DNA from: Candidatus Terraquivivens tengchongensis
GTDB taxonomy: Archaea > Thermoproteota > Nitrososphaeria_A > Caldarchaeales > Wolframiiraptoraceae
DNA: 64,000 bases
Reading direction: 5' to 3'
NCBI GenBank assembly: GCA_023261845.1
Contig: JALNJZ010000006.1
Coordinates: 19,113-83,112 of the forward strand
This document shows positions 8,984-34,023 of this stretch, piece by piece. The translations under genes and the position numbers were made by a program. Below the pieces are notes generated by a model. That model made no database searches and was not told the DNA's origin. It saw nothing but the letters and a program-made list of their open reading frames with translations. How positions within the stretch are numbered: position 1 is the stretch's first letter; the number at the start of each line of letters is the position of its first letter.

Positions 8984-10234
8984 TTAAGGCCAGCTACCTA
9001 AAGACTTTACCGCTTCCGCAACCCTTTTCACCGCGACGACCATAGCCGTCAGCCGTGTATTCGTTTTATACTCTTTGGCGAACTTCATAACCTCGTCAAA
9101 CGCTTTCACCATTTTCCTCTCTAAGTTCGCCCTAACCTCTTCTATGGACCACTTGGTACGTGTAAGGTTTTGAACCCACTCGAAGTAGCTGACAGTCACA
9201 CCGCCAGCGCTGGCTAGGATGTCCGGTACGATGAGTATTCCTTTTTCGAACAATATCCTATCGGCCTCGGGAGTTGTCGGTCCGTTGGCCGCTTCTATTA
9301 CGGCTGATGCCTTAATCCTGTCTGCATTCTTTGACGTTATCACGTTCTCGATGGCGGCAGGTATTAGGAAGTCGCACTCTAATTCTAGAAGCTCCTCGTT
9401 CGTTATGTTCTTGGCCTTTTCGTAGTTTATAACGGAGCCTGTCATCTTTTTATGGTTTAAAACTTTTTCGACGTCGAGTTGTTCGTTAGAACATATGCCA
9501 CCCTTTGAGTCACTTACGGCTATGATCCTACAACCCATCTCTTGGAGCAGCTTAGCCGATATGTAGCCTACATTACCGAACCCCTGCACGACTACCCTAG
9601 CACCCTTCAGCGGTTTCCCCAAATACTTGCTGACCTCCCTTGTGAGAATGGCTACGCCCATCCCTGTTGCCTCATTTCTACCCTCACTTCCACCTAAAGT
9701 GATGGGCTTACCAGTTACAACGGCAGGTGCTGGTTCGTTTTTTATCTTGCTATAAGTGTCCATTATCCAGGCCATAGTCTGTGCGTCCGTGTAGACGTCA
9801 GGGGCAGGTATGTCCAAATAGGGACCTATGACGTTTGCAATCGCCATCGTATATTTTCTAGTGAACCTTTCGAGCTCCGCCTGGCTCATGTTTTTCGGAT
9901 CGCACTTTACCCCTCCTTTTGCACCACCGAATGGTATGTCAACCACTGCACACTTCCAAGTCATCAGCATGGCCAGTGCCGTGACTTCCTCCAAAGTTAC
10001 GTCTGGATGATACCTTATACCGCCTTTGTACGGCCCCCTCGCTGAATTGTGTTGAACCCTGTATCCTGTAAAAACCTTGAGCTCGCCGTTGTCCATTCTA
10101 CAAGGCAAGGATACTATGATGCTACGCTCAGGCTTCTTCAAAACATCGCACAAGTCTTGGCTTAGGCCTATGGTCTGCGCCGCTTCATCAAACTGTTTCA
10201 TTACGTAAGATAGAAAAGATATGTTTGACGTCAT
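8984..10234 (-). CDS. gdhA: Glutamate dehydrogenase (paralog 1)
   Basis: GPYKGGIRYHP, MTWKCAVVDIPFGGAKGGVKCDP and GFGNVGYISAKLL are GDH signatures. The start was chosen at the Met at 10234, which leaves about 35 aa before the PERSIIV block as in other GDHs. Alternatives are 10300 and 10201. Confidence 0.85.
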   Translation of the reverse strand: MTSNISFLSYVMKQFDEAAQTIGLSQDLCDVLKKPERSIIVSLPCRMDNGELKVFTGYRVQHNSARGPYKGGIRYHPDVTLEEVTALAMLMTWKCAVVDIPFGGAKGGVKCDPKNMSQAELERFTRKYTMAIANVIGPYLDIPAPDVYTDAQTMAWIMDTYSKIKNEPAPAVVTGKPITLGGSEGRNEATGMGVAILTREVSKYLGKPLKGARVVVQGFGNVGYISAKLLQEMGCRIIAVSDSKGGICSNEQLDVEKVLNHKKMTGSVINYEKAKNITNEELLELECDFLIPAAIENVITSKNADRIKASAVIEAANGPTTPEADRILFEKGILIVPDILASAGGVTVSYFEWVQNLTRTKWSIEEVRANLERKMVKAFDEVMKFAKEYKTNTRLTAMVVAVKRVAEAVKSLGSWP

Positions 10235-10278
10235 GTTTAATAGAAATTCAGCAAAACATAAATAGTTATCGTAAGAAT

Positions 10279-11526
10279 TTACAAATCCTCGATCCTCCAC
10301 ATATATTCCTCCAGATCTTCACGAGCGTATGCCTCCGTGGCTACGTCTATGGCACCCTCTCTCAACAGCATTGCCTTTTTGACTCTTCTCTTTGCTACCT
10401 CTTCGGCAACACTCCTAGGCGGGTGGTTTGAATGTACTGACTCTATCAAGACCCTCTTTACATTGGTAGTTATCTTATACTTGATCAGCTCAAATGCCTG
10501 TATCTCGGTTCCGCCTATATATTCAACATAAGAACCGATGACACCGCCTGCGTTCACAAGAAAGTCAGGCATTATCCATACACCGTTTTCCCACAATATT
10601 CTTTCTGCTTCTTTCGTCGTCGGTATGTTTGCAGCCTCAACGACCATCTTCACTTTAGACGAGATAAGACTGTATGCTGCTTGCTCATTTATCGTGTAAG
10701 AGGCCGCGGCAGGTATGAATATATCAACTTCTTTCTCAAATATTTTGTCCCTAGGTTCTTTTAAACCGGTCTTCAAATCATTGAGCATAGGAGCTTTCAT
10801 TTTTGTTCTTAAGAGCTTTAGCTCTTCCATTATCTTCGGTATATCCAAACCGTTTGGGTCGCATATACAGGCTGAGGCGTCGTTTATAGCAACAACTTTG
10901 TATCCCATCTCGTCGAGGAACTTTGCCGTAAATGAACCCACGTTACCGAATCCCTGTATGGCAACCCTAGCCTCCTTCGGTTCTATATTCAATATGTTTA
11001 ACTTATCCAGAATCTTGACTGACAAGTCTGTTGCGATTGCTACACCGTAGCCCGTGGTACCGAGTTCATGCGGTATGCCTCCTAACTCCGTAGGCTTACC
11101 GGTGCATGCTTTCATGTCACCTATCTCATGTGCAAATATAGCCATATCCATCTCCGTCGTTCCCATATCCGTAGCAGCTATGTATTGCAGCGGAACGTAT
11201 GGTTTAATGGCCTTTGCAAACGCTCTAACCCAAGCTACTCTATCAACTTCTAGAGGATTGCCCCTAATGCCTCCTTTTGCTCCACCAAACGGTAGCCCAG
11301 CTATAGCACATTTCCAAGTCATAACCCTTGCGAGTAGAAAAACCTCTTGGGGCGTTACAGTCGGCTGGAACCTTATTCCACCTTTTCCTGGACCCATGGC
11401 CGTGTTGTCGATTACCAAGACGCCCTGCATCTTCGTATGCGGGTCGTAAACCTGTATGACTTTCTCTGGCCCCCACTCGTCAGCTAGACTCCACACATCA
11501 TCCTTTTTAAAATTCTGACCTGACAT
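10279..11526 (-). CDS. gdhA: Glutamate dehydrogenase (paralog 2, divergent from paralog 1)
   Basis: GPGKGGIRFQP, MTWKCAIAGLPFGGAKGGIRGNP and GFGNVGSFTAKFL. Confidence 0.85.
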   Translation of the reverse strand: MSGQNFKKDDVWSLADEWGPEKVIQVYDPHTKMQGVLVIDNTAMGPGKGGIRFQPTVTPQEVFLLARVMTWKCAIAGLPFGGAKGGIRGNPLEVDRVAWVRAFAKAIKPYVPLQYIAATDMGTTEMDMAIFAHEIGDMKACTGKPTELGGIPHELGTTGYGVAIATDLSVKILDKLNILNIEPKEARVAIQGFGNVGSFTAKFLDEMGYKVVAINDASACICDPNGLDIPKIMEELKLLRTKMKAPMLNDLKTGLKEPRDKIFEKEVDIFIPAAASYTINEQAAYSLISSKVKMVVEAANIPTTKEAERILWENGVWIMPDFLVNAGGVIGSYVEYIGGTEIQAFELIKYKITTNVKRVLIESVHSNHPPRSVAEEVAKRRVKKAMLLREGAIDVATEAYAREDLEEYMWRIEDL

Positions 11527-11861
11527 ATCATCCTCACCTCTTACAACCTCAGGAAGTCATCTCAGAGTTTTTCATGTTCTGCATCCCAACTACCTTGCTA
11601 AGAGATTGATCTAGTATTTTTAACAAAGTATAAGAGGCATACAAACCATGAGTCCCTTTTATTATCATCCCTTGCGCATTTATCAACATTTTTTCCATAT
11701 AACGCTATTGTTGCACATATATCTAATTGAAGTGAACTTTTCGTAACTTATTTGATGTTGCAACACGCGATAAGTTGTATAAATAGCGTAAACCTTCTTT
11801 ACGCTATATCAATATGAACGTTTTGCGGACATTTTACAAATTTTTAATGTTATGATGATCT

Positions 11862-11878
11862 TAGCGAAATTTTATATA
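11862..11878 (+). promoter_or_regulatory. Candidate archaeal TATA box for the chaperonin-like gene
   Basis: TTTTATATATG lies about 30 nt upstream of the ATG at 11904, inside an AT-rich divergent intergenic region (11527-11891). Confidence 0.3.
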
Positions 11879-11891
11879 TGAACGTCTGAGT

Positions 11892-13733
11892 TTGGTTAAA
11901 AAGATGTCTACATCCGCCCACAGGTTCAGAGGCAGGGATTTTGCACCAACCATTTCCCAAAGATTGCTCTTGGAAAAGCTCGACAGAGGTTACGCTAAGC
12001 TGGCTAAGGTTGACCAAAGAATGCTGCCTCTGTCGCATGAATCCGTGCCAGAACCTACAATATACGTTGACGGTAAACCAGCGTCCGTGCTCAGCATAGG
12101 TTCTGAGCTGAAGTTGGGAGAAGATGCTCAATTCGAAAAATTTTCTGCCGTCCGATGGATGACGGAGTTCGTCTCAGGACTTTATGGACCGTTTAGAATG
12201 AATAAGTTGATAATAGACGAGGGTGGTCTAAAGTATTTGGCAAGCGATATTAGGACTATTCTGATGAAAGCAGGATTAGCACATCCAATAGCCCAGCTCA
12301 TGGCAGGCGCTGGTTTGGCGGTGTCCAAGACTGTGGGCGACGGTGCTGTGTATACCGTCATCTTAAGCGGTAAGATTTTAGAAAGATGTCAGGAGCTTAT
12401 GCTAAAAGGGGTTAGCGTATCAACAATACTTGACGGGCTCCTAGAAGCGCTCAACCAAACCCTACAAACAGTGGAACGGCTGTCAATCGACGTTTCATCT
12501 CAACGCGAAAAGATGTTGATGTCGGTTATAGAAACGAGCATACTGAATAGGCTGCCTGAACACGTTCGGCATAAGTTTGCGAGTATTTTACACAAGGTGG
12601 TGGAAATTGTCGGAATAGATGAGTTAATGTCTGTTGACGTGGACAAAGTAGTTGACGTTAAAGCTGTCGAGAGCGGAACACTCGATGAATCGTTAGTTTT
12701 AGATGGTGTTGCCGTTTTCAAAGAAATGGCACATCCAGACATGCCGAAAAAGATAAAGGCCGCGAGGGTTGCCGTACTCAAAGATGAACTGCGAGTACAT
12801 GAAAAAATTGGACGCCAACTAAACTATTCCTTGGAACTTGGTGATGTAGGATTAAAGGAGCTGCTAGACAATAAAAATGCATACGTATCCGACTTGGTTA
12901 AAAAAATCATCGATCTGAATGTTGACTTCGTGGTTATCGAGAAAGGAGCAAACCCCATGGCTATTGAACAATTAGCAAAGGCAGGAATTGGTGCTATATA
13001 CGGACTTCCGCACCCAGAAGTTGAGTTGATAGCTAGAGCAGTTAACGCGCTGCCGACAAAAGTGATGCTCCTAGAAGAGTCAGACATTGGCTGGGCAGGA
13101 ATCGTAGAGGAAGTTGAGTTTGATGGGAAGAAAACGATACTCATCCACGAATGTAAGAAGCCTAGAAGTGTTAGCATTCTGCTTAGGGGCGTAACGAACT
13201 TATTACAAAGTGACGTGGAGAGGAGTCTCAAGCACTCCCTTCCGATATTCTCCCTTGTTAGAGAGTGTTGTAAGGTTGTCTATGGTGGCGGTGCCTTCGA
13301 GATAGAGTTGTCGCTACGCCTTAAAGAGTATGCTGAGAGCATTCCAGACAAGAGGCAGTTGGTCATTAAATCTGTAGCGGACGCGTTCGAGGACGTAGTA
13401 TCGATTTTGTCTAAAAACCTAGGTCAAGATTTTGTGGAGGTGTTAAGCAAGCTGAAGTCAGAGCACGTATCTGGAAAAATCGATGCATGTGTTAATTATG
13501 AATGTGGTGTTGCGAGTGCTAAAGAGCTAGGCTTATACGAGTTGTCTGCTGTTAAGCAACAGGCCATTAAGACTGCCTTCGAGCTTGCATACACCATCCT
13601 GAGAATAGATGGAATAATAACCGGTAGAAAGTTATCAGAGTCTGAATATTATTATGTAAAAAGGATTAAAGGGACTTCTCCAGAAAAATTGAGGGAGCTT
13701 AAGAAAGAATACGGTCTTGAGACATTAGAATAG
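11892..13733 (+). CDS. Divergent group-II chaperonin (thermosome/CCT)-like protein with degenerate nucleotide-binding motifs
   Basis: Collinear with the thermosome: LYGPFRMNKLI aligns with TLGPKGMDKML; VGDGAVYTVILSGKIL with AGDGTTTAVVIAGELL; VIEKGANPMAIEQLAKAGIGAIY and ILLRGVTNLLQSDVERSLKHSL with the equatorial C-terminal blocks. The ATG at 11904 may be the true start. Confidence 0.7.
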   Translation: MVKKMSTSAHRFRGRDFAPTISQRLLLEKLDRGYAKLAKVDQRMLPLSHESVPEPTIYVDGKPASVLSIGSELKLGEDAQFEKFSAVRWMTEFVSGLYGPFRMNKLIIDEGGLKYLASDIRTILMKAGLAHPIAQLMAGAGLAVSKTVGDGAVYTVILSGKILERCQELMLKGVSVSTILDGLLEALNQTLQTVERLSIDVSSQREKMLMSVIETSILNRLPEHVRHKFASILHKVVEIVGIDELMSVDVDKVVDVKAVESGTLDESLVLDGVAVFKEMAHPDMPKKIKAARVAVLKDELRVHEKIGRQLNYSLELGDVGLKELLDNKNAYVSDLVKKIIDLNVDFVVIEKGANPMAIEQLAKAGIGAIYGLPHPEVELIARAVNALPTKVMLLEESDIGWAGIVEEVEFDGKKTILIHECKKPRSVSILLRGVTNLLQSDVERSLKHSLPIFSLVRECCKVVYGGGAFEIELSLRLKEYAESIPDKRQLVIKSVADAFEDVVSILSKNLGQDFVEVLSKLKSEHVSGKIDACVNYECGVASAKELGLYELSAVKQQAIKTAFELAYTILRIDGIITGRKLSESEYYYVKRIKGTSPEKLRELKKEYGLETLE

Positions 13734-13762: not shown

Positions 13763-15172
13763 TTACACCGGAAGTGCAACCTTTAACTCCTCGAACTTTT
13801 TAACGTAGTAGTCGTTGTTGTCGGGAAGGTCCGGCGATAGGAAGTATCTCGTCATTTTTTGTTTATCCTCGACAGAGCCGAGGTCCCTGAGGTTGCCCCT
13901 CGGATGCGGCGTGCCCGTTCTGGGTGGCTCACCTGTCCAGAAGTGCTTGAAGTATACGTCAGGTAGGAATAGTGCATTCTGTAATCTTTCTGGTAGCGTA
14001 GCAAACTCCGGCTTATCAGGCCATATGACTTTCATCACTTCATCTATCGGCAAGTAAGTGCTCTTGCCCTCGTAGAACCAACCGTAGAACTCGTCTCCCA
14101 TGGCATTCTTATAATCCTCCCAAGCCCAAGCGGGCGTCGGATATCCTTGTTTAGTGTAAAGCATCTGCGTGTAAAGCTCGAGGTGCCAGTTGAGTAGCTT
14201 TATGCACTCTTCTGCAACCTCAGGTGAGACTAGAGAAGAGACATAGCCGGAGTTATACCAGAAGAATGGTCCATGCTGTAACGCTGCGTAGTATGCAGGC
14301 GTTCCAGCCTTTCTCGTATCGAAGCACACCGGCTGCCAAGTACTGGCTAGCCATACCTCCCTAGTTGAAAACAGCGTAACTATATCTCCATAGGAGAACC
14401 AGAAAGTCTTTATGAAGCCCTGCTTAACGTATGGTAGAAGATAGTTGAAAACTTTATCGACTTCCTCCGGAGTTAGATTAGTTATAGCACCTGAAAACGT
14501 CATCTGCTCGGTTGCTTCCAAGTAGTTTGCAGTCTCGCTAAATACCGTAAAACCTTCGTCCTGCATTCCGGTCCTTCCTTTCCACTCCGGGTTCCAAAGT
14601 TCTGAATAAGCCAACGTCCTTTTAGTACCGCCACGCTCCTCATAAGGCACGAACTCAGGGAGGTACGTTACAGAGTCAAAGTTCCACATGACTGGAACTG
14701 CTACAAGGGTCTTTCCAGGCTCCTTCCAGAGCAGGTAGTTGAACCTCTCTGCTTGAGCTGGCTTGAAGTACTTCTCGACATGGTAGAACATGTCCAAGAC
14801 CTTGTCCGCCCTCCACCTAGGCACCTTCTCAACAGGTATGGCTCTTGCTAGTCCCTCGGCTATGATGGGTCTGTACCTTCCAGAGGCTGCCACGTCCCAT
14901 GCAGCAGGGTTGGCCAGTTGTTTCTGGGTCATAACAAAGAAGTCTAAGTAAGTGGTTTCTACGTCGATGCCTGTTAACTTCTCGTACTCTTTCTCAGCGT
15001 CGGGCGGGAAGTAGAACGGATGTGTTGAGTACCTAATCTTCGATGGTTTCGTAATTGTCGGAGTTGGTGGAGCGCTTGTATAGAGGTACCATGCCAAACC
15101 ACCGACAACAGCAGCGGCAGCAACTCCTCCAACAGCGGCTAGGAATTTCCTTCTAGATACTTTTTCCGACAT
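13763..15172 (-). CDS. ABC transporter substrate-binding protein with twin-arginine-type signal (polyamine/iron PotD/AfuA-like)
   Basis: N-terminal RRKFLAAVGGVAAAAVVG signal. About 470 aa is typical SBP size. Last gene of the ABC operon. Confidence 0.7.
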   Translation of the reverse strand: MSEKVSRRKFLAAVGGVAAAAVVGGLAWYLYTSAPPTPTITKPSKIRYSTHPFYFPPDAEKEYEKLTGIDVETTYLDFFVMTQKQLANPAAWDVAASGRYRPIIAEGLARAIPVEKVPRWRADKVLDMFYHVEKYFKPAQAERFNYLLWKEPGKTLVAVPVMWNFDSVTYLPEFVPYEERGGTKRTLAYSELWNPEWKGRTGMQDEGFTVFSETANYLEATEQMTFSGAITNLTPEEVDKVFNYLLPYVKQGFIKTFWFSYGDIVTLFSTREVWLASTWQPVCFDTRKAGTPAYYAALQHGPFFWYNSGYVSSLVSPEVAEECIKLLNWHLELYTQMLYTKQGYPTPAWAWEDYKNAMGDEFYGWFYEGKSTYLPIDEVMKVIWPDKPEFATLPERLQNALFLPDVYFKHFWTGEPPRTGTPHPRGNLRDLGSVEDKQKMTRYFLSPDLPDNNDYYVKKFEELKVALPV

Positions 15173-15247: not shown

Positions 15248-16069
15248 TTAACGAACTCTTCTGGACATTATGTAGGCGAATATTGCTAAGCCTATAAAGG
15301 CCACTATCGCGATGATCGTGCCGGCTGCAAACCACTTAGGGGTTATCGGGTTTATCGAAAGCTCGTTTTTGATGTAAGTTGCTAAGGTGCCCGTACCTTT
15401 CATGACGAATTGTGTTCTGATTACTTCGCCCCATGAGAGTAGGAAGCCTATTATAGCTGCCGATATGACCTCGAATATTATCAAAGGCAACGTTATGCGT
15501 CTGAATACGCTGAGGGGACTTGCTTTTAATACGCTAGCTGCGTACTCGTATGTGGCTAGTTCAGGGTCAAACCTTGACATCATGAGTATGAGGCCGAAGG
15601 GCACCGTGTAAACCGTAAGAATAGCCGCAACAGCTAAGAGGGATGATTCGATGCCGAAAAGCCTGAACATGAAAGTTACACCTAAGCCAAGCGCAACGCC
15701 GGGAACTATGAAGCCCAAGATGAACAAGTAGAATAGCAAGTCCCTACCCACGATTCTCTTTCTAAGAGCTAAAGCAGTCGTGGTAACCAAGAGGCATGTC
15801 AGCAACGCAGTGACGATCGATACGAATAGCGAGTTGTTCAAGGCCGTGAAGAAGTTCTTGTCATGCATTATCGAGATGTATGCGGAATATTCATAACCTG
15901 TCGGTGGTTTTATGTACCAGTCTAGCGTAAGGCCCTCTATGGGGAAGCTTATCCTAGCACCGCTCTTGAAGGATAGCAATATCATGAAGAATACTGGGAG
16001 ATATATGAAGAGTATGATCAACGCGATGTAAACTTTTGCTAACCTATCTCCCCATCCCATTCCCAACAC
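15248..16069 (-). CDS. ABC transporter permease (PotC-like)
   Basis: 273 aa with six TM segments, in an operon with the ATPase and SBP. Confidence 0.75.
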   Translation of the reverse strand: MLGMGWGDRLAKVYIALIILFIYLPVFFMILLSFKSGARISFPIEGLTLDWYIKPPTGYEYSAYISIMHDKNFFTALNNSLFVSIVTALLTCLLVTTTALALRKRIVGRDLLFYLFILGFIVPGVALGLGVTFMFRLFGIESSLLAVAAILTVYTVPFGLILMMSRFDPELATYEYAASVLKASPLSVFRRITLPLIIFEVISAAIIGFLLSWGEVIRTQFVMKGTGTLATYIKNELSINPITPKWFAAGTIIAIVAFIGLAIFAYIMSRRVR

Positions 16070-16073
16070 CTCG

Positions 16074-16964
16074 CTAATACACTAACTTCTTTATATCAAC
16101 CACCTTTAGAAGCACGTAAAGCACGAGTAGCGCTATTACCACCAAAATTGTCGAAAGCGCGGCGGCGTAAGGCCACACGAAGTTAGCGGCATAGTTCGCT
16201 ACCGATAGACCAAGCGTCTGTATACCTCCGGCCCACAGGGCTGGCGTTATGTAGTCTCCTAAGGTGCTTACGAAGACGAATATGAAGCCCATCACAACGC
16301 CGGGAAGCGATAACCTGAAAGTTACGTCAAGGAAGACACGGTGCGGCGGAGCCTTTAGCACTTTGGCCGCATTTATTATATCAGGGTCTATTCTCGTCAA
16401 CGCAAGATACGATGGGAATATCATCCAAAGTAGGTAGGTCTGAGGCCAGATTATGAGCAGGGTGCTACGTCCGAATAACAACTCTAAGGGCTCTTTGATC
16501 ACACCTAAAGACATGAGGGCATAGTTGATTATACCGCTCTCTCCAAGTATCGGTAGCCAAGCAACAACACGGACGCTCCAGTCAATCAGGAAGGGTACGA
16601 GCAACAAGCTGACTATGAAAAACCTTGCGCGCGCACTCTTAACCCTAAACACCAGAAAGTAAGCCATAGGATAACCGAGCACGAACGATATAAAACATGC
16701 AAGCAAGGACATCCCGAACGTGTTTAACAGTATTGTCGGCATTTGCGGCGATGTAAAGAATGCAATGTAGTTCTTCAGCGTGAAAGTCTCAGGACCTGCG
16801 ATCGTAAACCTTTCAAAAAAGCTTATGCCTACTATCATGCTAAGAGGTATCAGCAAAAAAAGTAGCAAGAGTACAAATCCTGGAAGGAGCAATAGGTAGC
16901 GAGAGTACTTGGCAACCCTATCGATCAAACCCATCTTCAGCTGAGGGGCACTCAAGCCGCACAC
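16074..16964 (-). CDS. ABC transporter permease (PotB-like)
   Basis: 296 aa polytopic membrane protein, 1 nt from the ATPase gene. Confidence 0.75.
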   Translation of the reverse strand: MCGLSAPQLKMGLIDRVAKYSRYLLLLPGFVLLLLFLLIPLSMIVGISFFERFTIAGPETFTLKNYIAFFTSPQMPTILLNTFGMSLLACFISFVLGYPMAYFLVFRVKSARARFFIVSLLLVPFLIDWSVRVVAWLPILGESGIINYALMSLGVIKEPLELLFGRSTLLIIWPQTYLLWMIFPSYLALTRIDPDIINAAKVLKAPPHRVFLDVTFRLSLPGVVMGFIFVFVSTLGDYITPALWAGGIQTLGLSVANYAANFVWPYAAALSTILVVIALLVLYVLLKVVDIKKLVY

Positions 16965-18092
16965 CTACTTTCCGTATATCACTTCTTCTATGTCCAGCCC
17001 TTCTATCATGCACGGCTTCTCTATTAACAGAGCATCCTTTGCGCTCCATCCTAGGAGGTATGTGGACCCAAGCGTGAGGTTGCCTACCTTCTCGGTGGGA
17101 ACCGAGACCTTTATCTTTGTATTACCGCCTGCTTGGAACACATACTCCATATAATGACCAAAGTAGTAATAGCTGACGAGTTTCGCCTCTATTTTGTTGT
17201 CGCATAGCCTGGCCTCTTCTCCTATCTTTACGCGTTCAGGTCTTACCGCATATGCTACCTTGTCGCCGGACGGTAAAGCATTCTTGTTTTTGGGATTTGC
17301 CTTGAGCTCGCCTATCTCGGTGTTAAGATAACACAATTCGCCATCCCAAGACTTGATTTGTGCTGAGAATAGGTTTATTTCACCGACGAACCTTGCGGCA
17401 AAGACCGTGGCAGGGTTGTTGTAGACTTCTTCAGGCTTTCCGATCTGTTCTATTACACCCGTGTTCATGACCATAACGGTATCTGCAAGGTTGAGCGCAT
17501 GTTCCTGGACGTGGGTCGTCAAGATGAAAGTGTTACCTACTTTCCTGTGAATTTCCTTAAGGTCCTCCATTAGCTTTCTTTGTAGCCTATAGTCCACATG
17601 GCTGAGTGGTTCATCGAGTAGAAGGATGCTCGGGTTGATGACAAGCGCCCTTGCCAGCGCAACCCTTTGTCTCTGCCCACCGCTCAGCTCGAGCGGCATC
17701 CTCTTCTCCAATCCAGCTAAACCGACTAGCTTCAGAGCTTCCTTTACCTCTTTCTCTATTTCCGATTTGTCCTTTCCTAGCATCCTAAGACCGAATGCTA
17801 CGTTATCGAAGACGTTCATGTGGGGGAAGAGGGCATAGTTCTCCAACATCATTGAAACGTCCCTCTTGTACGATGGAACGTTTTTCATATCTACGCCGTT
17901 TATGTAAAGCTTCCCGGAGTCGTAATCCAGTATACCTGCGATGATTTTCAAGAGGGTACTCTTACCGCATCCGCTAGGACCGATTATGACGAAGAAGTCC
18001 CCCGCATCTACGTCAAACGTTACCTTATTGAGTGCTAAAACCTCTTTTCCATACCATTTCACGAGCTCTTTGGTTTCTAAGGCCTTGCCCAT
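16965..18092 (-). CDS. potA: ABC transporter ATP-binding protein (PotA/spermidine-putrescine type, with C-terminal TOBE-like domain)
   Basis: Walker A GPSGCGKST. Signature LSGGQRQRVALARAL. Walker B LLLDEP. Confidence 0.85.
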   Translation of the reverse strand: MGKALETKELVKWYGKEVLALNKVTFDVDAGDFFVIIGPSGCGKSTLLKIIAGILDYDSGKLYINGVDMKNVPSYKRDVSMMLENYALFPHMNVFDNVAFGLRMLGKDKSEIEKEVKEALKLVGLAGLEKRMPLELSGGQRQRVALARALVINPSILLLDEPLSHVDYRLQRKLMEDLKEIHRKVGNTFILTTHVQEHALNLADTVMVMNTGVIEQIGKPEEVYNNPATVFAARFVGEINLFSAQIKSWDGELCYLNTEIGELKANPKNKNALPSGDKVAYAVRPERVKIGEEARLCDNKIEAKLVSYYYFGHYMEYVFQAGGNTKIKVSVPTEKVGNLTLGSTYLLGWSAKDALLIEKPCMIEGLDIEEVIYGK

Positions 18093-18251
18093 AGTGGCAC
18101 CGCACCTTCTTTATTAACTACTTATACTTATATTTTTACAAATTTTAGCACGATTTCCGAGGATTTCTTGTTATGCGTTTTACAATCCATTCATCGCACG
18201 AAAAACTTATAAGCGCATCTTCTTTCGTTTTGCCCGTCGGAGGAATTTAAA

Positions 18252-19304
18252 ATGAGAATCTTAAAGGAAAAAGAGCTAAAGGATATTGTATACGGAGCCA
18301 CTCTACTTGGTGCTGGTGGTGGCGGTTCTCCTGAGAACGGAATGCAACTCGTTAAGAGCATACTGGAAATTAGTGAAGGAGTTCGGATGGTAAGCCCGGA
18401 GGAAGTGCCGGACTATTGTATGGTAGCGGTCGTGGCGGGCATGGGTGCTCCGGAAGTATTGCTTAAAAGAGGGTGGAAAAACGAGGACATACCTGCCCTC
18501 AGATTGTTGGAACAGGTAGTTGGCAGGAAGATGGATTATATTATTGCGATTGAAACCGGAGGCTTTAACTCAATAACTCCGCTCCATGCTGCTGCGGCAA
18601 GCGGTGTTCCGGCAATCGACGGAGATGGGGTAGGAAGGGCCATACCACAGCTGGAGATGACGATGTTCTACGTGCAAAACGTGCCTTTAGCCCCAGTTAC
18701 GCTGGCAGATGCTCACGGGAATTCGGCTATCCTTTACCCCGTAGACGCTCCGATGGCCGAAAAGATGGCTAGGGGCATAACCGTGGCTTTTGGCATGCAA
18801 GCCGGCATTGCATGTCACCCCATGGCAGGCTGGCAGATGAAGAAGGCAGTAATAAGCGGAACCTACACGATGGCCGAAAAGGTGGGCAGGGCCATTAGGG
18901 AGGCGAGGGATAAGGGTAAAGACCCCGTCAAGGCTGTAGTGGAAGTCACGAACGGTTTTGAGATCGCCAGGGGGAAGGTTACTAAGAAGGAAGTCGAAAC
19001 CAAGGGAGGCTTTGACTATGGAAGGGTCTACGTCGCAGACATACGTGTAGACTATAAGAACGAGAACATGATAGCCTGGAGGGCAGGAAAACCCATAGCA
19101 ATATCGCCCGACTTAATATGCTGGATGACGACGGACGGACGGCCCTTAACCAACGCTGATATAAAAGAAGGTTTAGAGGTTGCCGTGATAGGAATAAAGG
19201 CTTACGAAAAGTGGAGGACGCCCGAGGGGCTTGCCGTGTTCCGTCCAGTCCTCGCCGAGCTGGGCTATACTGGCGAATACATACCCATAGAAAAGCTCCT
19301 CTAA
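18252..19304 (+). CDS. DUF917-family protein
   Basis: N-terminus LKDIVYGATLLGAGGGGSPENG matches the DUF917 glycine-rich block. About 350 aa. This family is typically found with hydantoinase/racemase genes. Confidence 0.55.
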   Translation: MRILKEKELKDIVYGATLLGAGGGGSPENGMQLVKSILEISEGVRMVSPEEVPDYCMVAVVAGMGAPEVLLKRGWKNEDIPALRLLEQVVGRKMDYIIAIETGGFNSITPLHAAAASGVPAIDGDGVGRAIPQLEMTMFYVQNVPLAPVTLADAHGNSAILYPVDAPMAEKMARGITVAFGMQAGIACHPMAGWQMKKAVISGTYTMAEKVGRAIREARDKGKDPVKAVVEVTNGFEIARGKVTKKEVETKGGFDYGRVYVADIRVDYKNENMIAWRAGKPIAISPDLICWMTTDGRPLTNADIKEGLEVAVIGIKAYEKWRTPEGLAVFRPVLAELGYTGEYIPIEKLL

Positions 19305-19369: not shown

Positions 19370-20122
19370 ATGCGAAAAGTAAGGGTCCTAGTAGTTCTTC
19401 CCATATTGAAGAATCCTGCTTTGGAGGAAGTTACGCGAAGAGAAATCGAGCAAATCCGAGATGAAAACCTTGAGGTGAGCTTGGTCAGCTTAGAACAAGG
19501 GCCGGCCTCTATTGAGTCAGAATTTGATGACAGGATAGCATCGCCTTGGGTTCTGGAGAAGGTTAAGGAAGCTGAGGTTAATGGTTTTGATGCCGTGTTC
19601 CTGGATTGTATGGGAGATATAGCCCTGAATGCTGCAAAGGAAATCGTGAGAATACCCGTGATCGGTCCGTGTCAAGCTACGATGGCGATGGCGTCGATGC
19701 TCGGTGATAGGTTCTCGGTGATCACTATCTTAGAGAACGTAGTCCCACTTTTTTGGAGAAAGGCCAGAGAATATGGTTTCATACAAAACCTTGCATCGGT
19801 AAGGTCCGTGGAGGTGCCTGTGCTCGAGTTGGATACGAAGAGAGAGTTAGTTAAGGAGAAGTTGGTCGAGGAATCAAAGATTGCGATAAAGGAAGATGGT
19901 GCTGATGTGATAATCTTAGGATGTACAGGGATGGTAGGTATGGCAAAAGACGTTCAGGAAGTTGTAGGCGTACCGGTCATAGACCCGGTACCGGTATCGA
20001 TAAAGCTCGCCAAACTCATGGCGGAACTTAGGCTCATCCATAGTCGCAAAGCCTATCCAAAACCACCATCTAAGCTGAGAAAGTTCCCGGGGATGTCGGA
20101 GCTGCTACTCGAGAAAATTTAA
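19370..20122 (+). CDS. Asp/Glu/hydantoin racemase family protein
   Basis: Two-lobed pattern VLVVLPI...FDAVFLDCMGD...GADVIILGCTGMVG. The ATG at 19370 was chosen. The long 5' extension of the six-frame ORF overlaps the previous gene. Confidence 0.6.
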   Translation: MRKVRVLVVLPILKNPALEEVTRREIEQIRDENLEVSLVSLEQGPASIESEFDDRIASPWVLEKVKEAEVNGFDAVFLDCMGDIALNAAKEIVRIPVIGPCQATMAMASMLGDRFSVITILENVVPLFWRKAREYGFIQNLASVRSVEVPVLELDTKRELVKEKLVEESKIAIKEDGADVIILGCTGMVGMAKDVQEVVGVPVIDPVPVSIKLAKLMAELRLIHSRKAYPKPPSKLRKFPGMSELLLEKI

Positions 20123-27358: not shown

Positions 27359-27769
27359 TTGAAAAAATTTTTTAAAGATTTTGATGGTTTGTTTTTTAGG
27401 GTTGCTCGCAGGTATTTGGGTGGTGTTAGGGACGTGGATGTGGTTGTTATGGTTGATGATTTGACGCTTGTTGATGGAGATTCGCCTCTAGCCTATAAAG
27501 CGCCTGAGGGTAGCGAGTGGGGTAAACAGAAATTTTCCAGTGAGGTTTTGGAGAGGGCTAGGGCTGTTAATGAGAGGTTTTTGGAGAAGAAGCTTAGGAA
27601 TGGGCGGTATGGTGAGGTTTATTTGGCTATGGGGAAACAGTATGCCGCGGCCCTGCCAGACTTGGCAAAATACGGTGTGAAAGTGGTTTTTCCAACTAGC
27701 GGCGGACCCGGACCAAAAGCACAAGCACTAAAACAATGGATTTTGAGGGAAGAATCTAATGAGTTTTGA
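27359..27769 (+). CDS. Hypothetical protein, first cargo gene of the island (TTG start; start uncertain)
   Basis: 136-aa ORF with extreme G+T-rich composition. Ends 11 nt inside the MTase gene start. Contains VVFPTSGGPGP. No family recognised. Confidence 0.4.
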   Translation: MKKFFKDFDGLFFRVARRYLGGVRDVDVVVMVDDLTLVDGDSPLAYKAPEGSEWGKQKFSSEVLERARAVNERFLEKKLRNGRYGEVYLAMGKQYAAALPDLAKYGVKVVFPTSGGPGPKAQALKQWILREESNEF

Positions 27770-30728
27770 GAGGTTTGTAGAAGAGAAGTTGCCATTAACT
27801 CTTTTGAATAAGCTTAGTGCTAAAGAGTCGGGTTTTATTCGGATTCCAAAAATTCATAATATCCATACGTGGTTTGCTAGGAGGCCAGCTGGCGCTGCTC
27901 GTGCATTGACTTTAGCGGCTGTATTGCCGAAACATGTTGAGGAGAATATTTACAATAAGATTTCGTCTCTGGTAGATGCTGAAAGATTAGATAAAGTAAT
28001 TTATATTGTTAACCCAGACAGGGATACTATTAATAGTAAATTGAAAAGTTTCATCGGTAAAAGCGCAAAGGATGTTGTTGTTTGTGATCCTATGGCTGGT
28101 GGTGGCAGTATTCCTCTTGAGGCTTTGAGGCTTGGTTTTAGGACTATTGCGGTTGAGTATAATCCTGTTGCCTATCTGGTTTTGAGGGCTTCTGTGGAGT
28201 TTCCAGCCAAATATGCTGATTCGGGGCTTTTTGAAGAAACATTGAAGGCTTCTAAAGAGTTTGTTAGTAGGGCTAGAGAAGAGCTTGGCAAGTATTATGG
28301 TGAGGATGCTGAGAACTACATTTTTGCTCGTGGTGTGAGGTGTCCATTCTGTGGCGGGCTTATTCCAATTCAGGGGATTGAACCGGCGATAACTAAGGCG
28401 CCGAGGTTCAAGAAAAGGTTCTTGAAAATAACTTATGACAAGGAGAAGAAGACTTTCTCTGCTGAAACAACAGATAAAGCCATAGCATCTGGAACCATTG
28501 CTAAACGTGGAAACAATATTAAATGTCCTTACGATGGCTGTGGAAAATGGTTCCAACTACGTGGGCAAGCGAAAGGAGAAACAACAGCCTTTGACCAATG
28601 GTTTTACGAACATGCAAAAATGATGGAAAGCATCGTTGAGGGTTTCGCTCCAATTACTGGCGAGCTTGAAGAGAAAATGCTTAACCTACACATTTCACTG
28701 GTAAAGCAGGTTGGCAACAGTTTTCAAGCAATATGGGACGAAAGAATAGAAAAAGGAAAGTTTGTGGATGCTTTGCATGCTCTTAGCAATGAGCTTTTAG
28801 AACTTCAAAACTACATCCCTCTGGACGAGATTTCGGCGGATAACGTTTGGGCTAGCACTGCGGTAAGCAAGGGATTGACGAAGTGGTATATGCTCTACAA
28901 CCCAAGACAACTACTGGCCATAGCGAAACTATCAAAAATTGTGGCTGAAACCGCCGAGAAACTAACTTCAAAAGATGGAGAGTTTGGAGCAGCAGTAGCC
29001 ACATACATTGCATTGGCGTTAGACAAGATAATAGACTACAACACTATAGCCACCCATTGGCAAGGAACAGGCTTTAAAACTGGTATTGCACACACTTTGC
29101 GGGGTGAGAGCACCCTTGACTTCAGAAAAGAATACTGCGAAATAAAACGTGTAGACGAAGCATTGATGTGGACTTTGGAACCTGATGTCGCTGAATCAGA
29201 CGTTCTAACAAAAACAACTGGTGGGGTTCTCCCAGTATTAAAATTCCTCTGCGATGAGTTTAGAAGCGCAGATGCTAAAGAAAAGGTAAACGTCTATTTG
29301 GGTGATGCCACTCAGCTTTCTTCCATTTTAGGCATAAAATCTATTGACCTTATTAATGTTGATCCACCCTACTTCGAGCAGGTAATATATAGCGACAGAA
29401 GCGAGTTCTTCTGGGTTATACTCCGCAGATCCCTAGCTCCAGCCCTAGAACTCTTATTCAAACCAAACCTCAAACTCTCCAATTGGACATGGACAAGCCC
29501 CACAGTGCCAAGAGAAAGAGAAGTTGTAACCTACGACAAAGAAGACACGCAGGGAAGATTCCGCAAATTCTTCACCGACTTCATAACAGAAACCTCAAAA
29601 GTCCTAAAAGACGACGGAGTCCTAACCCTCTGGTTCACGCATCCCACAGCACTAGCATGGCGGGTTGTCAGCGAATCCCTATACCAAAACGGCTACGTAG
29701 TCCCAAAAGTCTGGCCCCTACAAACAGAAATGAAAACCCGCTACAAAAAACACGTAAACATAGTAGCTCAAGAAATGAGCCTAGTAATAGTAGGCCGCAA
29801 ATACCCACGCCAAAAACTACTGGAAGTGTCGCCCCAAGACGTTAAGGGAAGCCTTATGGAAAACCCCCTATTCACAAAGACAGTTGAAGAAACAGTAGAA
29901 GACACAAGAAAAATAATCATGGAAGCAAACGCCTCCCCAGCCGACACAGCCGCCCTAATGTTCGGAACAGCCCTCAGCGTAGCCTCCCGCTTCGAACTAC
30001 CAATAGGCGCAACCTTCACAGACCTATACGACACAGCCATAACCGCCGTAATATCAAGATACACAGAACCCCTAATCTACAAGGTGCTAACCCAAATAGG
30101 ACCCCAAAAACTAGACGAAAATACAGCCCAAAAAATAGCCAAAAATATAGCCCAAGCCATGCTATGGGACCCAGCAACCCGCTCATACCTGACGTTATGG
30201 CTAATATCCCGCGTAGACCTCGCCACAGCAAAAATACGCCAAGAACCCTTAGGCTTGCATTTTGACCTCGTCCAAACAGTAGGCAAACTATGCGGCTTCG
30301 GCATAGAAAACCTAAAACACTACAGCCTCATAACAGAAAAAACCATAAACAAAACAGGAAAAGCCTACTACCCCCAATTCCTAGAAATGCTAACCCTACC
30401 AGGCGGACAAACCTACCCAGACAGACTAATGCAGGTAGCCCCAGGATTGGCGACAATCCTAGCCCGCATGGCCATGACAGAAAGCGGAGACCCAGCAGCC
30501 AGAGCAAAAACCATAAAGGCGAAAATGAGCATGCACAGCGACAGAGAACTCTCAAGCTGCGCCGCCCTAGCCACAATCCTACTAGAAACCGCACGCGACC
30601 AAGACTTAGGCTATAGAATAACAGACAAAACAAAAATAACAGGATACTTCCCAGGCATGGACGAAAGCGAAATAGCAAAACTCGTAAGAGAATTAGCTAT
30701 AAAAACCCTAACACACTTAGTCTTTTAA
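27759..30728 (+). CDS. DUF1156-type N6-adenine DNA methyltransferase with inserted Zn-ribbon (PglX/PglXI-like)
   Basis: HTWFARRP at aa 36-43 is the DUF1156 N-terminal hallmark. SAM motif I VVCDPMAGGGSIPLEA at aa 108-123. Cys4 ribbon CPFC (aa 195-198) and CPYDGC (aa 256-261). Catalytic motif IV NVDPPYF at aa 533-539. SD-like GAGGG lies 11 nt upstream of the ATG. Confidence 0.8.
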   Translation: MSFERFVEEKLPLTLLNKLSAKESGFIRIPKIHNIHTWFARRPAGAARALTLAAVLPKHVEENIYNKISSLVDAERLDKVIYIVNPDRDTINSKLKSFIGKSAKDVVVCDPMAGGGSIPLEALRLGFRTIAVEYNPVAYLVLRASVEFPAKYADSGLFEETLKASKEFVSRAREELGKYYGEDAENYIFARGVRCPFCGGLIPIQGIEPAITKAPRFKKRFLKITYDKEKKTFSAETTDKAIASGTIAKRGNNIKCPYDGCGKWFQLRGQAKGETTAFDQWFYEHAKMMESIVEGFAPITGELEEKMLNLHISLVKQVGNSFQAIWDERIEKGKFVDALHALSNELLELQNYIPLDEISADNVWASTAVSKGLTKWYMLYNPRQLLAIAKLSKIVAETAEKLTSKDGEFGAAVATYIALALDKIIDYNTIATHWQGTGFKTGIAHTLRGESTLDFRKEYCEIKRVDEALMWTLEPDVAESDVLTKTTGGVLPVLKFLCDEFRSADAKEKVNVYLGDATQLSSILGIKSIDLINVDPPYFEQVIYSDRSEFFWVILRRSLAPALELLFKPNLKLSNWTWTSPTVPREREVVTYDKEDTQGRFRKFFTDFITETSKVLKDDGVLTLWFTHPTALAWRVVSESLYQNGYVVPKVWPLQTEMKTRYKKHVNIVAQEMSLVIVGRKYPRQKLLEVSPQDVKGSLMENPLFTKTVEETVEDTRKIIMEANASPADTAALMFGTALSVASRFELPIGATFTDLYDTAITAVISRYTEPLIYKVLTQIGPQKLDENTAQKIAKNIAQAMLWDPATRSYLTLWLISRVDLATAKIRQEPLGLHFDLVQTVGKLCGFGIENLKHYSLITEKTINKTGKAYYPQFLEMLTLPGGQTYPDRLMQVAPGLATILARMAMTESGDPAARAKTIKAKMSMHSDRELSSCAALATILLETARDQDLGYRITDKTKITGYFPGMDESEIAKLVRELAIKTLTHLVF

Positions 30729-30747
30729 ATAGAAAGAGGCAGTAGCC

Positions 30748-33700
30748 TTGAAAACCATAGGCCAAATTTTCCAACTGAAAGAATCCCTTCTAGAAATAAA
30801 GTCAGAACTAACACCAAGCTTCGACGAAGTAATAAGAAGCTACCTAGGCCAACATGTAAAAACAAAATTCAAAGACCCCGCCTACACAACAGAAATCACA
30901 TACCCTACACCTCCACTCCAAACCTTCATCAAAAGAATCCTTGAAGGCCTAACAATACCAACAGTTCAAGGCACATACCTAATAAGAGGATTCGGCTTCG
31001 GAAAAACCCACGCCATAATACTCCTCTGGCACATGCTAAACTCAAAAGAAGGAGCAAACTCCCAACTAGCCAAACAATTCGGCCTAAAAGAAAACATAGC
31101 CCAAGAAACCCTAGCCCTAGGAATAGACTTCAGCAAAGAACAACCCTTCCCCCACCTATTCAACCAGCTAGAAGCCATAGCAAAAAGACAACCAGAACAA
31201 TGGCAAATAAAAGACCCAAGGCTTTCCCAAGCCATAATAGAAGTAACCAGAGAAATAAGCAGAACCAAAGCCCTAGCCCTACCCTCAGAAGAACTCGCAA
31301 ACCTAATAATCAAAATACTAGAAAAATATAGGGAAGCGAAAGCTAATCCGAGGCTTCTACTCCTAATAGATGAACTTGGAATAGGAATAATCAGCAGACT
31401 TACAAGCTACATAGAAACCCAAAACGAGGAAAAATACGGCGAAATCGAATACATAACCAACTTCATAGAACAACTCTACACAAAACTAAGCGGAAAAGGC
31501 ATACCAGCCTACATCATAGTCGCCCTCGCAGAACAAGACATCAGAGAAATAGACCACATATACCTCCAACAAGCAGACAAACCCATAATCCAAACAAAAA
31601 TAGACGGCCTAAGAAAACGCCTCAACATCCTAAAAGAACGACTAAGCAGAGCAGTCGGGGGCCTAGGCGAAGAAGCTGCACTATCCTATGACCCAGAACA
31701 CGCCATAAACATAGCAAAACACAGAGTCTTCAAAAAAATCGAAGAGGAAAAAGACATAGAAAAAACCCTAATAGCATACCTAACTCTACAAGCCCAACAA
31801 TACAACCTCCAAGAAACCTTCGAAACCTACAAAGAACAAATCAAAAACTACTATCCGCTTTCCCCAAGCATGATTTGGCTGTTCCGGAAAATCCTAAACC
31901 CCTACGACGCTCCTGGAACAGAATACGTAAGAACAACCCTAAACATACTCGCAGAAGCCGCCGAAAACGCCCTAACATACGAGCCCCACAAGTCGCTAAC
32001 CGTAAGCGCAAAACACCTCTCCATAGGACGGGCAGGCGTAATCGACCTCATGGGAGACTTCGAAGCAGAATGGGCCAGCACAGCCTCAGACATAGAACAC
32101 GCCATAAAATCAGCAAATCCAGAAATACAAAAAGCCGTAGACATAGTCGCCAAACAAATACTTGCAAAAGGCACAACAGCCAACGTTACAGCCCTCATAG
32201 AAGTAAGAGACATAAAAGAAATCAAAAGATACGCCGTTTCACCAGAAGAAATGCAAATAGACATACTAACCACGCTACCCTCAGAAGAAGCAACCAAAAC
32301 CATAACACAACTCCAAGAGGCCATAGAATACCTAAAAACACAAAGCGCAAGAATCGAAGAAAAAGAACATGAAAAACAAAAATTCTATCTGCCATCCCCA
32401 ATGAGAACAATCTACGACAAACTTGCAGCCTTTGTAGCAGAACACAAAAGGATACTTGAAGAACCAACCCAATTACCAGGATACCTACAACAAGCAAACC
32501 TGCCTAGCCTCCTATACAGCCCAAAAGCAGCAATACCATCAAGAGAAAAAGAAGTCACAATACTTCTAAAGGAATACAACACTGTCACAAATGCTGAAGA
32601 ACTCATAAACAGTGTGGACGTAAGAGATGCTCAAAACGAAGGAAACCTCTCCATAATAGTTGTCCCACCATGGGACGCCTTTCTCTTCAACGAACTCTAC
32701 CAAAGAAAAACAGACTACCATACCCTCACAAACACAATAGCCCAAAAACTCCAAAGCATAAATCTGGCAGGAAAAATCAGCCACCCCTTACACCTATTAG
32801 TCCTCATACCAAACATAAACCAAGACAAACTGACACGACTAATAGACGACGTAATATCATACGCAGCCGTAAAAGACTTCATCAAACACCTCGAAAACAA
32901 AGAAAAAATCCTAGAAGAAAAAATGTATGACTACGAAAGAACCGTCAAAAAGAGACTCACACTAAGGCTAACAGAGTTCTTAGAAGAACAACGCAAAAAA
33001 CTCGAGATAAGCCTTAAAAGCTCCATAGAACGACAAGTAAGAGACGCCAGATCATCCGCCCAAAAAGAACTCATAAAACTAACACGAAAAATAGCCACAA
33101 GTGCAATAGAACTCTACGAAGACGTAATCTATTACAGCCTACAATCCCAAAACTTCACAGCTCAAAGCCTAATCAAACTCTTCGGTGAACTATCCGGAGA
33201 AGCCTCAAAACTAGAACAAAGCGGAAAATCCTCCCTGTCAGAATACTCTCTAATCGTAAACATGTTCTTCAGAAGAGTAACAGAATCCACAGGATTCTCA
33301 TGGGAGCCAGACACCATAGCAGAAGCCATATACAAACACTACAAGGCAGAAATTGAAAGTGGAGTAATCCGAAAACAAGACAGGATAAACGAAATAGTTG
33401 AAAACTCACTTCTCGGCACATACGAAGTAAAACCACTAAGCTCTAAAGTAGTTCAAGAAGCCATCCAAAAACTAAACGGCAAAACAATAGAAGCTGAAAA
33501 CAAAAAAGTAACATTAAAAGTCGACGAAAAAACCAACCGGATAATCTTTAAAATAGAGGAAATAAAGCCGCCAGAAATAATAACAGAAGAAAAACCCACC
33601 GAAATACCACCAGAAGAAATACCCGTTCCAACAGAAGACCGCCCCGCAATTGCTGAAAAAACCCTTGGAGAAGTCATAATCGAAGTAGACCAAAACTTCA

Positions 33701-34011: not shown

Positions 34012-34023
34012 AAGGGAAGATCC

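Follow-up and report, generated by a model that had tools for sequence, protein, structure and literature searches.

What is the function of an archaeal group II chaperonin-like protein that seems to have lost its catalytic residues, is held under strong selection, and travels with one gene cluster across archaeal classes? The question is posed by the following gene, which lies in a stretch of 64,000 nucleotides from Candidatus Terraquivivens tengchongensis (the window; positions are counted from its first letter).

11904-13733, plus strand: chaperonin-like coding sequence, 609 amino acids (aa) plus stop codon, a tail-bearing, cluster-linked group II chaperonin paralog

The usual view of thermosomes is that of general ATP-driven folding machines, whose paralogs tune the ring to temperature. 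The lineage of the window protein would differ from them on three counts: the loss of the catalytic residues, the strong selection that holds it, and its constant association with one transporter and enzyme gene cluster. In Caldarchaeales/Aigarchaeota, Bathyarchaeia, and relatives it is among the core members of this conserved cluster, together with an ATP-binding cassette (ABC) importer, a hydantoin-racemase-like protein, and a DUF917 protein. Our best explanation, whose chances we put at about even, is that the window protein is a specialized, cluster-dedicated group II chaperonin paralog acting without ATP hydrolysis of its own.

Chaperonin Fold and Nucleotide Site

Its profile matches place the window protein in the Cpn60/TCP-1 superfamily, and its architecture is that of group II. 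It matches Pfam PF00118 over profile positions 3-487 of 490 (E = 1.7e-102, 344 bits vs a cutoff of 34.3) and aligns without large gaps to the thermosome alpha subunit 1q3s from PDB (E = 7.5e-71). The AlphaFold2 model (predicted local distance difference test score, pLDDT, 81.7; predicted template-modeling score, pTM, 0.76) superimposes on the closed thermosome 1q2v with a template-modeling (TM) score of 0.91 and a root mean square deviation of 2.3 Å, and on the closed thermosome and TRiC subunits with TM scores of 0.86-0.92. The full-length alignment with group II chaperonins, reported in a sequence-only reading of this locus, is thus borne out. According to the model, the equatorial, intermediate, and apical domains and the built-in lid are retained. 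Helices at residues 300-337 occupy the position of the lid, or helical protrusion; the lid (pLDDT 54-59), the N-terminal extension, and the C-terminal tail are the low-confidence parts of the model.

The protein lacks the marks by which a working thermosome subunit was judged here: it reaches none of the curated score cutoffs, and neither the GDGTT loop nor the catalytic Asp is present. The thermosome models score below their cutoffs (NF041082 alpha, 326 vs 450 bits; NF041083 beta, 320 vs 400 bits; TIGR02339 thermosome_arch, 310 vs 671 bits), and all CCT models (TIGR02340-02347) do likewise, the best being CCT gamma with 261 vs 553 bits. The motifs of the nucleotide site, read directly from the alignments and numbered by the 609-aa protein, are as follows.

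12186-12206, plus strand: residues 95-101, GPFRMNK, replacing GPKGMDK
12240-12263, plus strand: residues 113-120, ASDIRTIL, replacing TNDGxTIL; Asp115 is kept, Asn and Gly are lost
12336-12356, plus strand: residues 145-151, GDGAVYT, replacing the phosphate-binding loop GDGTTT
13215-13241, plus strand: residues 438-446, VERSLKHSL, replacing (I/L)ERxxxDA(L/I); His444 is at 13233-13235
13284-13301, plus strand: residues 461-466, GGGAFE, the retained nucleotide-pocket glycine motif

The replacements of GDGTT by GDGAV and of GPKGMDK by GPFRMNK had been noticed before, and both are confirmed here. His444, which had been missed together with the C-terminal tail (residues 574-609) and the downstream gene cluster, is found at the catalytic Asp position of the ERxxxDA motif, which we take to be the equivalent of GroEL Asp398 and of Asp386 in the Methanococcus maripaludis chaperonin Mm-cpn. 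The D386A variant of Mm-cpn, labeled as the 'pre-hydrolysis ATP-bound' state, is among the PDB matches of the window protein. In the core clade of the lineage, which carries the signature ER..K[HGS] at this motif, the position is taken by H, G, S, N, E, or R, in contrast to Asp in most aligned canonical sequences. In addition, Asn-Arg stands at residues 215-216, where the canonical TGK loop has Gly-Lys. The P-loops of other clades of the lineage read GDG[AS]VST, GGGAAST, GSGAATT, or GDHSVYT, so that in some of them (GGGAAST, GSGAATT, GDHSVYT) the Asp or a Gly of the loop is lost as well. Phe465 of the retained GGGAFE motif is near-invariant in the clade; canonical thermosomes vary at this position. 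A check for nucleotide-binding residues conserved at shifted positions found none. Thus the residues needed for ATP hydrolysis are, to judge from these alignments, lost in the branch containing the window protein, and the earlier proposal that it is likely ATPase-dead is strengthened because the catalytic Asp is lost throughout the core clade.

Both termini of the protein also depart from the thermosome pattern.

11904-12068, plus strand: N-terminal extension, residues 1-55
13623-13730, plus strand: C-terminal tail, residues 574-609, GRKLSESEYYYVKRIKGTSPEKLRELKKEYGLETLE, a charged segment of 36 aa that replaces the Gly/Met-rich thermosome tail

The extension amounts to ~51 aa relative to the Thermococcus KS-1 alpha subunit, in agreement with the initial estimate of about 50 aa, and its conservation extends from the 609-aa clade to the more distant P0068, P0080, and P0083. 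Its residues 1-35 (RGRDFAP...GYAKLAK), with a helix predicted at low confidence for residues 19-34, are specific to the 609-aa and GDH-motif clades. Residues 36-55 form the motif D.(T/R).LPL.HE..P.P, which is absent from canonical thermosomes; in the window protein residues 41-51 read LPLSHESVPEP, of which P42, L43, H45, E46, and P49 are invariant in the core clade. The tail, with two helices predicted at low confidence, follows the consensus ..(S/P)E(P)E.YY..R..(G)TSPE......(E/D)YG(L/I/V)E, which is the mark of the whole cluster-linked lineage. Its residues E581, Y584, and R587 are near-invariant in the core clade and have frequencies of 0.09, 0.00, and 0.04, respectively, in canonical thermosomes.

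No core-clade sequence departs from His45 and Glu46 (12036-12041), in the N-terminal motif, or from Cys162 (12387-12389), on the helix that follows the P-loop; Cys was never seen at the latter position in 120 canonical sequences. Together these three residues could form a new metal or ligand site.

Conservation and Selection

The gene is under strong purifying selection and is not decaying. The ratio of nonsynonymous to synonymous substitution rates (dN/dS) is 0.08-0.11 in comparisons with six orthologs, and the reading frame is intact in all orthologs. Mean pairwise identity was calculated by region for 16 core-clade representatives and for the same columns in 40 canonical thermosomes. The pocket segments proved to be the most conserved part of the protein, with 0.55 in the core clade vs 0.53 in canonical thermosomes; the label 'degenerate', given to the protein in the sequence-only reading, is therefore misleading, since the remodeled pocket is as conserved in its clade as in thermosomes. 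The apical domain has an identity of 0.41 vs 0.34. In the N-terminal motif (residues 36-55) the identity is 0.54 in the core clade vs 0.09 in canonical sequences, and in the C-terminal tail 0.44, similar to the body of the protein, vs 0.11, both canonical values being near-random. Further clade-specific invariant residues are G135, C162, and F495.

These data bear on the simplest alternative, that the gene is a decaying thermosome duplicate without function. The loss of the canonical ATP-site motifs would agree with it, but the intact frames, the low dN/dS values, a conserved promoter, and conservation across at least two archaeal classes already refute it, and we regard its chances as practically nil.

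Distribution and Phylogeny of the Lineage

A word-indexed search identified 42 relatives, which fall into three length classes (609, 578, and ~570 aa) with the altered motifs common to all three. Orthologs at 75-85% identity are present in Candidatus Terraquivivens species, and a 100% identical protein has been deposited from a metagenome-assembled genome (MAG) of Nitrososphaerota/Aigarchaeota, where NCBI labels it only 'TCP-1/cpn60 chaperonin family protein'. Across the lineage the database labels are this one, 'thermosome subunit', or 'chaperonin GroEL'. A profile search over 1.84 billion representatives, with scores grading into those of canonical thermosomes, added P0046-P0048, P0050-P0053, P0055, P0056, P0058-P0060, P0066, P0068, P0080, P0083, P0085, P0089, and P0116; P0050 was not located on any contig. 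The named members belong to Aigarchaeota (Candidatus Pelearchaeum and Candidatus Terraquivivens), Bathyarchaeia, and Candidatus Hecatellales. Over at least two archaeal classes the lineage is conserved at 33-41% identity with its own invariant motifs, and the feature uniting its sequences is the C-terminal tail.

The nucleotide-site motifs vary within the lineage. In the tail-bearing P0052, P0053, P0055, P0056, P0060, and P0089 the catalytic Asp is still present, as are loops of the GDG(T/S/A) type. In a neighbor-joining tree the tail-bearing sequences form one clade with the ATP-competent-looking members basal, but the bootstrap values (32% for the whole lineage, 47-57% for the core) are too weak to establish monophyly alone. 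Because of this weakness we base monophyly mainly on the shared tail and the shared genomic context.

Several relatives have paired or duplicated chaperonin units. P0045 (1057 aa) and P0049 (1047 aa) consist of two complete units fused in tandem, and at locus L144 (4950-8315) two separate chaperonin genes, a tail-bearing one and a tail-less one with the catalytic Asp, end an operon of the order solute-binding protein (SBP), permease, permease, ATPase, ATPase. The fusions and the L144 pair suggest obligate hetero-pairs in some relatives. At locus L120 (219-2056) a chaperonin frame in four pieces stands beside a racemase gene, with an intact family member on the same contig; the broken frame reflects either the decay of a second copy or a frameshift in sequencing.

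Conserved Gene Neighborhood

In the window, the whole set of partner genes lies within 6.4 kb downstream of the chaperonin-like gene.

13763-15172, minus strand: SBP gene (SBP_bac_8, distantly PotD-like), convergent with the chaperonin-like gene, with a 29-bp gap
15248-16069, minus strand: ABC permease, by homology
16074-16964, minus strand: ABC permease, by homology
16965-18092, minus strand: PotA-like ABC ATPase with a TOBE_2 domain
18252-19304, plus strand: DUF917 / S-Me-THD-family gene, with a profile match below the thiohydantoin desulfurase cutoffs
~19370-20122, plus strand: hydantoin/allantoin-racemase homolog (PF01177), start approximate; the open reading frame (ORF) opens at 19211, and the ortholog is called as 250 aa

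The association was analyzed in both directions. In the forward test, based on 67 loci from a scan of 185,579 species genomes, homologs of the racemase, the DUF917 protein, and the ABC importer were found at every family locus with enough flank, and the same neighborhood at none of ~45 canonical thermosome loci. Unbiased clustering of the flanking ORFs yielded the same partners, the sole other recurrent cluster being a NicX-like ORF at 4 of 13 loci. In the reverse test, metagenome contigs were searched with the profile of the binding protein rather than that of the chaperonin; of the resulting 76 loci, ~65 have useful flank, and ~50 of these contain a family chaperonin gene. At the loci anchored on the SBP, the tail is present on every chaperonin gene, including those that keep the ATP motifs, except for the second gene of the L144 pair.

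For counts by lineage, the loci were collapsed to 18 lineages at <80% identity, and the context within 10 kb on either side of each locus was mapped by phmmer with the window proteins as queries and score thresholds chosen by us. The counts come from partial metagenomic contigs, on which absences are uncertain.

SBP: 17 of 18 lineages, 12 of them within 1 kb, mostly convergent and 11-36 bp apart
Racemase: 16 of 18 lineages, 9 of them within 1 kb
Permeases: 14-15 of 18 lineages
ATPase: 13 of 18 lineages
DUF917: 10 of 18 lineages
Glutamate dehydrogenase: 1 of 18 lineages, the Terraquivivens clade only

The gene order is variable. Three deeply diverged members have the racemase, the DUF917/S-Me-THD protein, and a PotABCD-type importer as neighbors in differing order. 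At L068 a co-directional operon contains DUF917, hydantoinase-A, racemase, ATPase, and two permease genes, with the chaperonin gene last. At L149, L150, and L151, which carry P0066, the co-directional order is racemase, SBP, ATPase, two permeases, chaperonin-like gene, DUF917, and hydantoinase-A, the chaperonin gene thus being inside the operon, separated from the second permease by 3 bp and from DUF917 by 44 bp.

The P0066 contigs are labeled as Thermoflexus sp. (Chloroflexota), and the GC content of the cluster (0.48-0.53) differs from that of the flanks (0.61-0.63). A transfer of the cluster into bacteria was considered for these contigs and dropped: a flanking enolase-superfamily gene is 61% identical to Caldarchaeum/Nitrososphaerota sequences vs ~50-52% to bacterial ones, and because of this affinity the contigs are probably archaeal and mis-binned.

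The sequence-only reading had offered two roles for the protein, a regulatory or structural subunit of the general thermosome and a neofunctionalized chaperonin-fold protein. The first would make it a non-catalytic subunit co-assembling with canonical alpha and beta subunits. The full fold is kept, down to the lid and the terminal strands from which the ring is assembled; in eukaryotic CCT, subunits that use ATP weakly are tolerated; and the L144 operon, by pairing a tail-bearing gene with a tail-less, Asp-keeping one, hints at hetero-oligomers. Nevertheless, the lineage and the transporter and enzyme cluster are tightly linked in both directions, a linkage missing from canonical thermosome loci, and the lineage is restricted to a limited set of lineages in the genome scan; moreover, the N- and C-terminal segments, which in group II chaperonins face the inside of the ring, have given way to conserved segments specific to the lineage. 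We therefore consider a general thermosome subunit unlikely and favor the second, specialized role, since the cluster linkage is seen in 17 of 18 lineages and at none of the ~45 canonical loci. Mixed assembly with canonical subunits may still occur.

As regards the partners, the SBP of the window has a twin-arginine motif (SRRKFL) followed by a hydrophobic segment, and a motif of this kind (SRRK[FY]L plus a hydrophobic stretch) occurs in 55 of 70 orthologous SBPs. Twin-arginine export motifs are unusual for SBPs outside haloarchaea. The 70 proteins are also unusually long (470-530 aa), with many invariant aromatic residues. For the racemase, the nearest matches are allantoin/hydantoin racemases (3qvj, 5e-36). 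The DUF917 protein is remotely related to thiohydantoin desulfurases (99 bits vs a cutoff of 440), and a hydantoinase-A homolog is present in the cluster of some lineage members.

In searches of the literature on thermosomes, group II chaperonins, and DUF917, we found no description of the lineage or of its link to the cluster. A study of Caldarchaeales MAGs lists an archaeal chaperonin, a spermidine/putrescine-type ABC transporter, and an Asp/Glu/hydantoin racemase in predicted 'prophage regions' (PMC10547907); this gene set may be the same cluster, misread as prophage cargo.

Proposed Role

The early-branching members of the lineage, which retain the catalytic Asp and a near-canonical P-loop, are already found in the cluster. 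We suggest that the lineage began as an ATP-driven chaperonin dedicated to the cluster and that the branch with the window protein later lost catalysis. The protein would now serve a protein of the cluster, either on its own, as a holdase or an assembly chamber, or within mixed rings, as the subunit that recruits the client. Substrates of the twin-arginine translocation (Tat) system must fold before export. Because of this, and because it is the most constant neighbor, the Tat-signal SBP would be the first candidate client, with the racemase and the DUF917 enzyme as alternatives. A bolder version, which we put forward tentatively and at clearly less than even chances, is an archaeal 'pseudo-chaperonin', a ring- or cage-forming protein without ATP hydrolysis that is an obligatory, dedicated part of a hydantoin-type uptake and conversion system. 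It could be, for instance, a chamber for folding or proofreading of the Tat-signal SBP before export, or it could cage or scaffold the racemase and DUF917 enzymes.

The conservation of the pocket also allows for a non-chaperone function, in which the fold would have been turned into a regulator or scaffold of the pathway that binds a ligand or nucleotide, for example gating the ABC ATPase via its TOBE domain, sensing a substrate in the pocket, or holding the racemase and DUF917 enzymes in a cage or scaffold. In agreement with this, the altered pocket is among the most conserved parts of the protein (0.55, with the invariant GGGAFE and the clade-specific G135, C162, and F495), the clade-specific His45, Glu46, and Cys162 could form a new site, and the clusters seen are usually without an obvious dedicated regulator. 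On the other hand, profile scans of the chaperonin-like protein revealed neither a DNA-binding domain nor a known regulatory one. Its apical domain (0.41 vs 0.34) and its lid are kept and conserved, which is easier to explain by continued binding of polypeptide clients, and the early-branching members resemble working chaperonins. On balance, a purely non-chaperone role seems improbable to us.

Several points nevertheless weigh against the proposal of a cluster-dedicated chaperonin that acts without ATP hydrolysis. Chaperone activity, oligomeric state, nucleotide binding, and physical partners are predictions from sequence, model, and gene context. The remodeled pocket, with its invariant GGGAFE and HP.AQLMAGA segments, is so strongly conserved that it could bind a ligand or nucleotide in a non-chaperone role. 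In many loci the gene and the SBP gene converge and are not co-transcribed, and the immediate neighbors of the chaperonin-like gene vary (racemase, DUF917, or permease), so that no single client is indicated. The proposed order, with ATP-competent ancestors followed by loss, depends on the weakly supported neighbor-joining tree. Finally, we call the gene a paralog because all archaea have a group II chaperonin, as stated in a passage of PMC5220055, and this status presupposes a canonical thermosome in the same genomes.

Comparison with Known Chaperonins

The closest known relatives are the archaeal thermosome subunits, represented by Thermococcus KS-1 alpha (1q2v/1q3s) and Mm-cpn (3kfb/3ruq), to which the window protein is homologous over its full length at ~30% identity. 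They have in common the three-domain fold with a helical-protrusion lid, as measured by the superposition above, the GP..K, Asp115, GDG, and GGGA.E elements, and many structural glycines. The window protein differs in having A-V-Y for T-T-T in the P-loop, SDI for NDG, His for the catalytic Asp, the 51-aa N-terminal extension, and the charged 36-aa tail in place of a Gly/Met-rich one. Its gene belongs to a transporter and enzyme cluster, whereas the thermosome gene is a stand-alone housekeeping gene.

Bacteria with multiple chaperonin genes have client-dedicated GroEL paralogs, sometimes encoded beside their clients. The likeness lies in the specialization of a duplicated chaperonin for particular clients; however, these paralogs are group I chaperonins and are still ATPases. 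Among group II proteins, at least one eukaryotic BBS protein, BBS6/MKKS, has degenerate ATP-hydrolysis motifs. BBS6/MKKS, BBS10, and BBS12 are diverged group II paralogs with a specific assembly task (PMC2846930), and the analogy with them is one of principle only: there is no specific relationship, as the window protein is archaeal, scores best on archaeal thermosome models, and has another genomic context and other termini. The bacterial group III chaperonins of Carboxydothermus and others likewise form a side branch of thermosome-like chaperonins outside the canonical archaeal set (PMC5635000, PMC12696368), but are ATP-driven folding machines of bacteria, in contrast to the archaeal lineage described here, with its lost catalytic residues.

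If the proposed role is correct, dedication to a client and independence of ATP hydrolysis can arise in group II chaperonins outside eukaryotes as well. We know of no group II chaperonin tied to an operon; the lineage would then be the first group II chaperonin known as operon-linked and client-dedicated, a prokaryotic counterpart of the idea developed for BBS6, BBS10, and BBS12. With few candidate clients, all encoded nearby, it would offer a tractable system for the study of a chaperonin cage without a motor. It would also give a functional handle on the widespread, uncharacterized cluster of DUF917, hydantoin-racemase-like, and ABC-importer genes in uncultured Caldarchaeales and Bathyarchaeia. 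The N-terminal motif, the C-terminal tail, and ER..K[HGS] can serve as signatures for annotating such genes as something other than 'thermosome subunit' or 'GroEL'.

Start Codon and Promoter

The ORF containing the gene (11892-13733, plus strand) opens at a TTG codon and would encode 613 aa. The true start is almost certainly ATG 11904, giving the 609-aa product, because the close homologs (55-100% identity, 609-611 aa) all open at the Met equivalent to this ATG and because the spacing of a conserved TATA box agrees with it.

11864-11879, plus strand: promoter, with a transcription factor B recognition element (BRE)-like GCGAAA at 11864-11869 followed by the TATA box TTTTATATAT at 11870-11879, identified by the archaeal promoter consensus

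Promoter function and leaderless geometry are judged by this consensus. The BRE/TATA block upstream of ATG 11904, GCGAAA-TTTTATATA (11864-11879), has its TATA core at -33 to -26 relative to this codon, so that TTG 11892 lies between the TATA box and the expected transcription start. The geometry implies a leaderless or near-leaderless mRNA, to the extent that the consensus applies. The strong TATA-like element noticed in the initial inspection stands: the block GCGAAAT(T/C)TTATA(T/C)A is kept, in sequence and in spacing to the ATG, in seven orthologous loci.

The exact 13-mer TTTTACAAATTTT was considered as a shared operator. Its only two exact copies in the 64 kb are at 11832-11844, upstream of the chaperonin-like gene, and at 18134-18146, in the divergent intergenic region between the ATPase and DUF917 genes; with one mismatch allowed there are three matches vs 0.26 expected. 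It was rejected, as it is not conserved in the orthologous loci. A repeated ATGAACG motif was likewise not relied on as an operator candidate.

Glutamate Dehydrogenase Pair and Remainder of the Window

Upstream of the chaperonin-like gene lie two tandem glutamate dehydrogenase homologs.

8984-10300, minus strand: ELFV dehydrogenase, close to archaeal GdhA (584 bits vs a cutoff of 750)
10279-11526, minus strand: ELFV dehydrogenase adjoining the chaperonin-like gene, strongly diverged (201 bits vs a GdhB cutoff of 620)

The substrate of the diverged enzyme may be other than glutamate. The divergent orientation of the chaperonin-like gene and this pair, described earlier, is true for the window, where the intergenic region is 377 bp long; a functional link was rejected as incidental, the arrangement being kept in 1 of the 18 lineages, the Terraquivivens clade.

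Two ORFs of ~540 aa elsewhere in the window, considered as possible canonical thermosome genes, proved to encode an acyl-CoA ligase and a glutamate-synthase-like protein. A tRNA scan of the window found no tRNA genes. Finally, a defense-like island of three parts is located at 27759-35439 on the plus strand. It comprises a DUF1156/HmaB-like DNA methyltransferase of 989 aa, an ORF of 1087 aa (30748-34011) without Pfam or PADLOC matches and of extreme strand composition, with an AT skew of 0.44-0.46 and a GC skew of about -0.25, and a BrxL-like protein (34024-35439, E = 6e-113).

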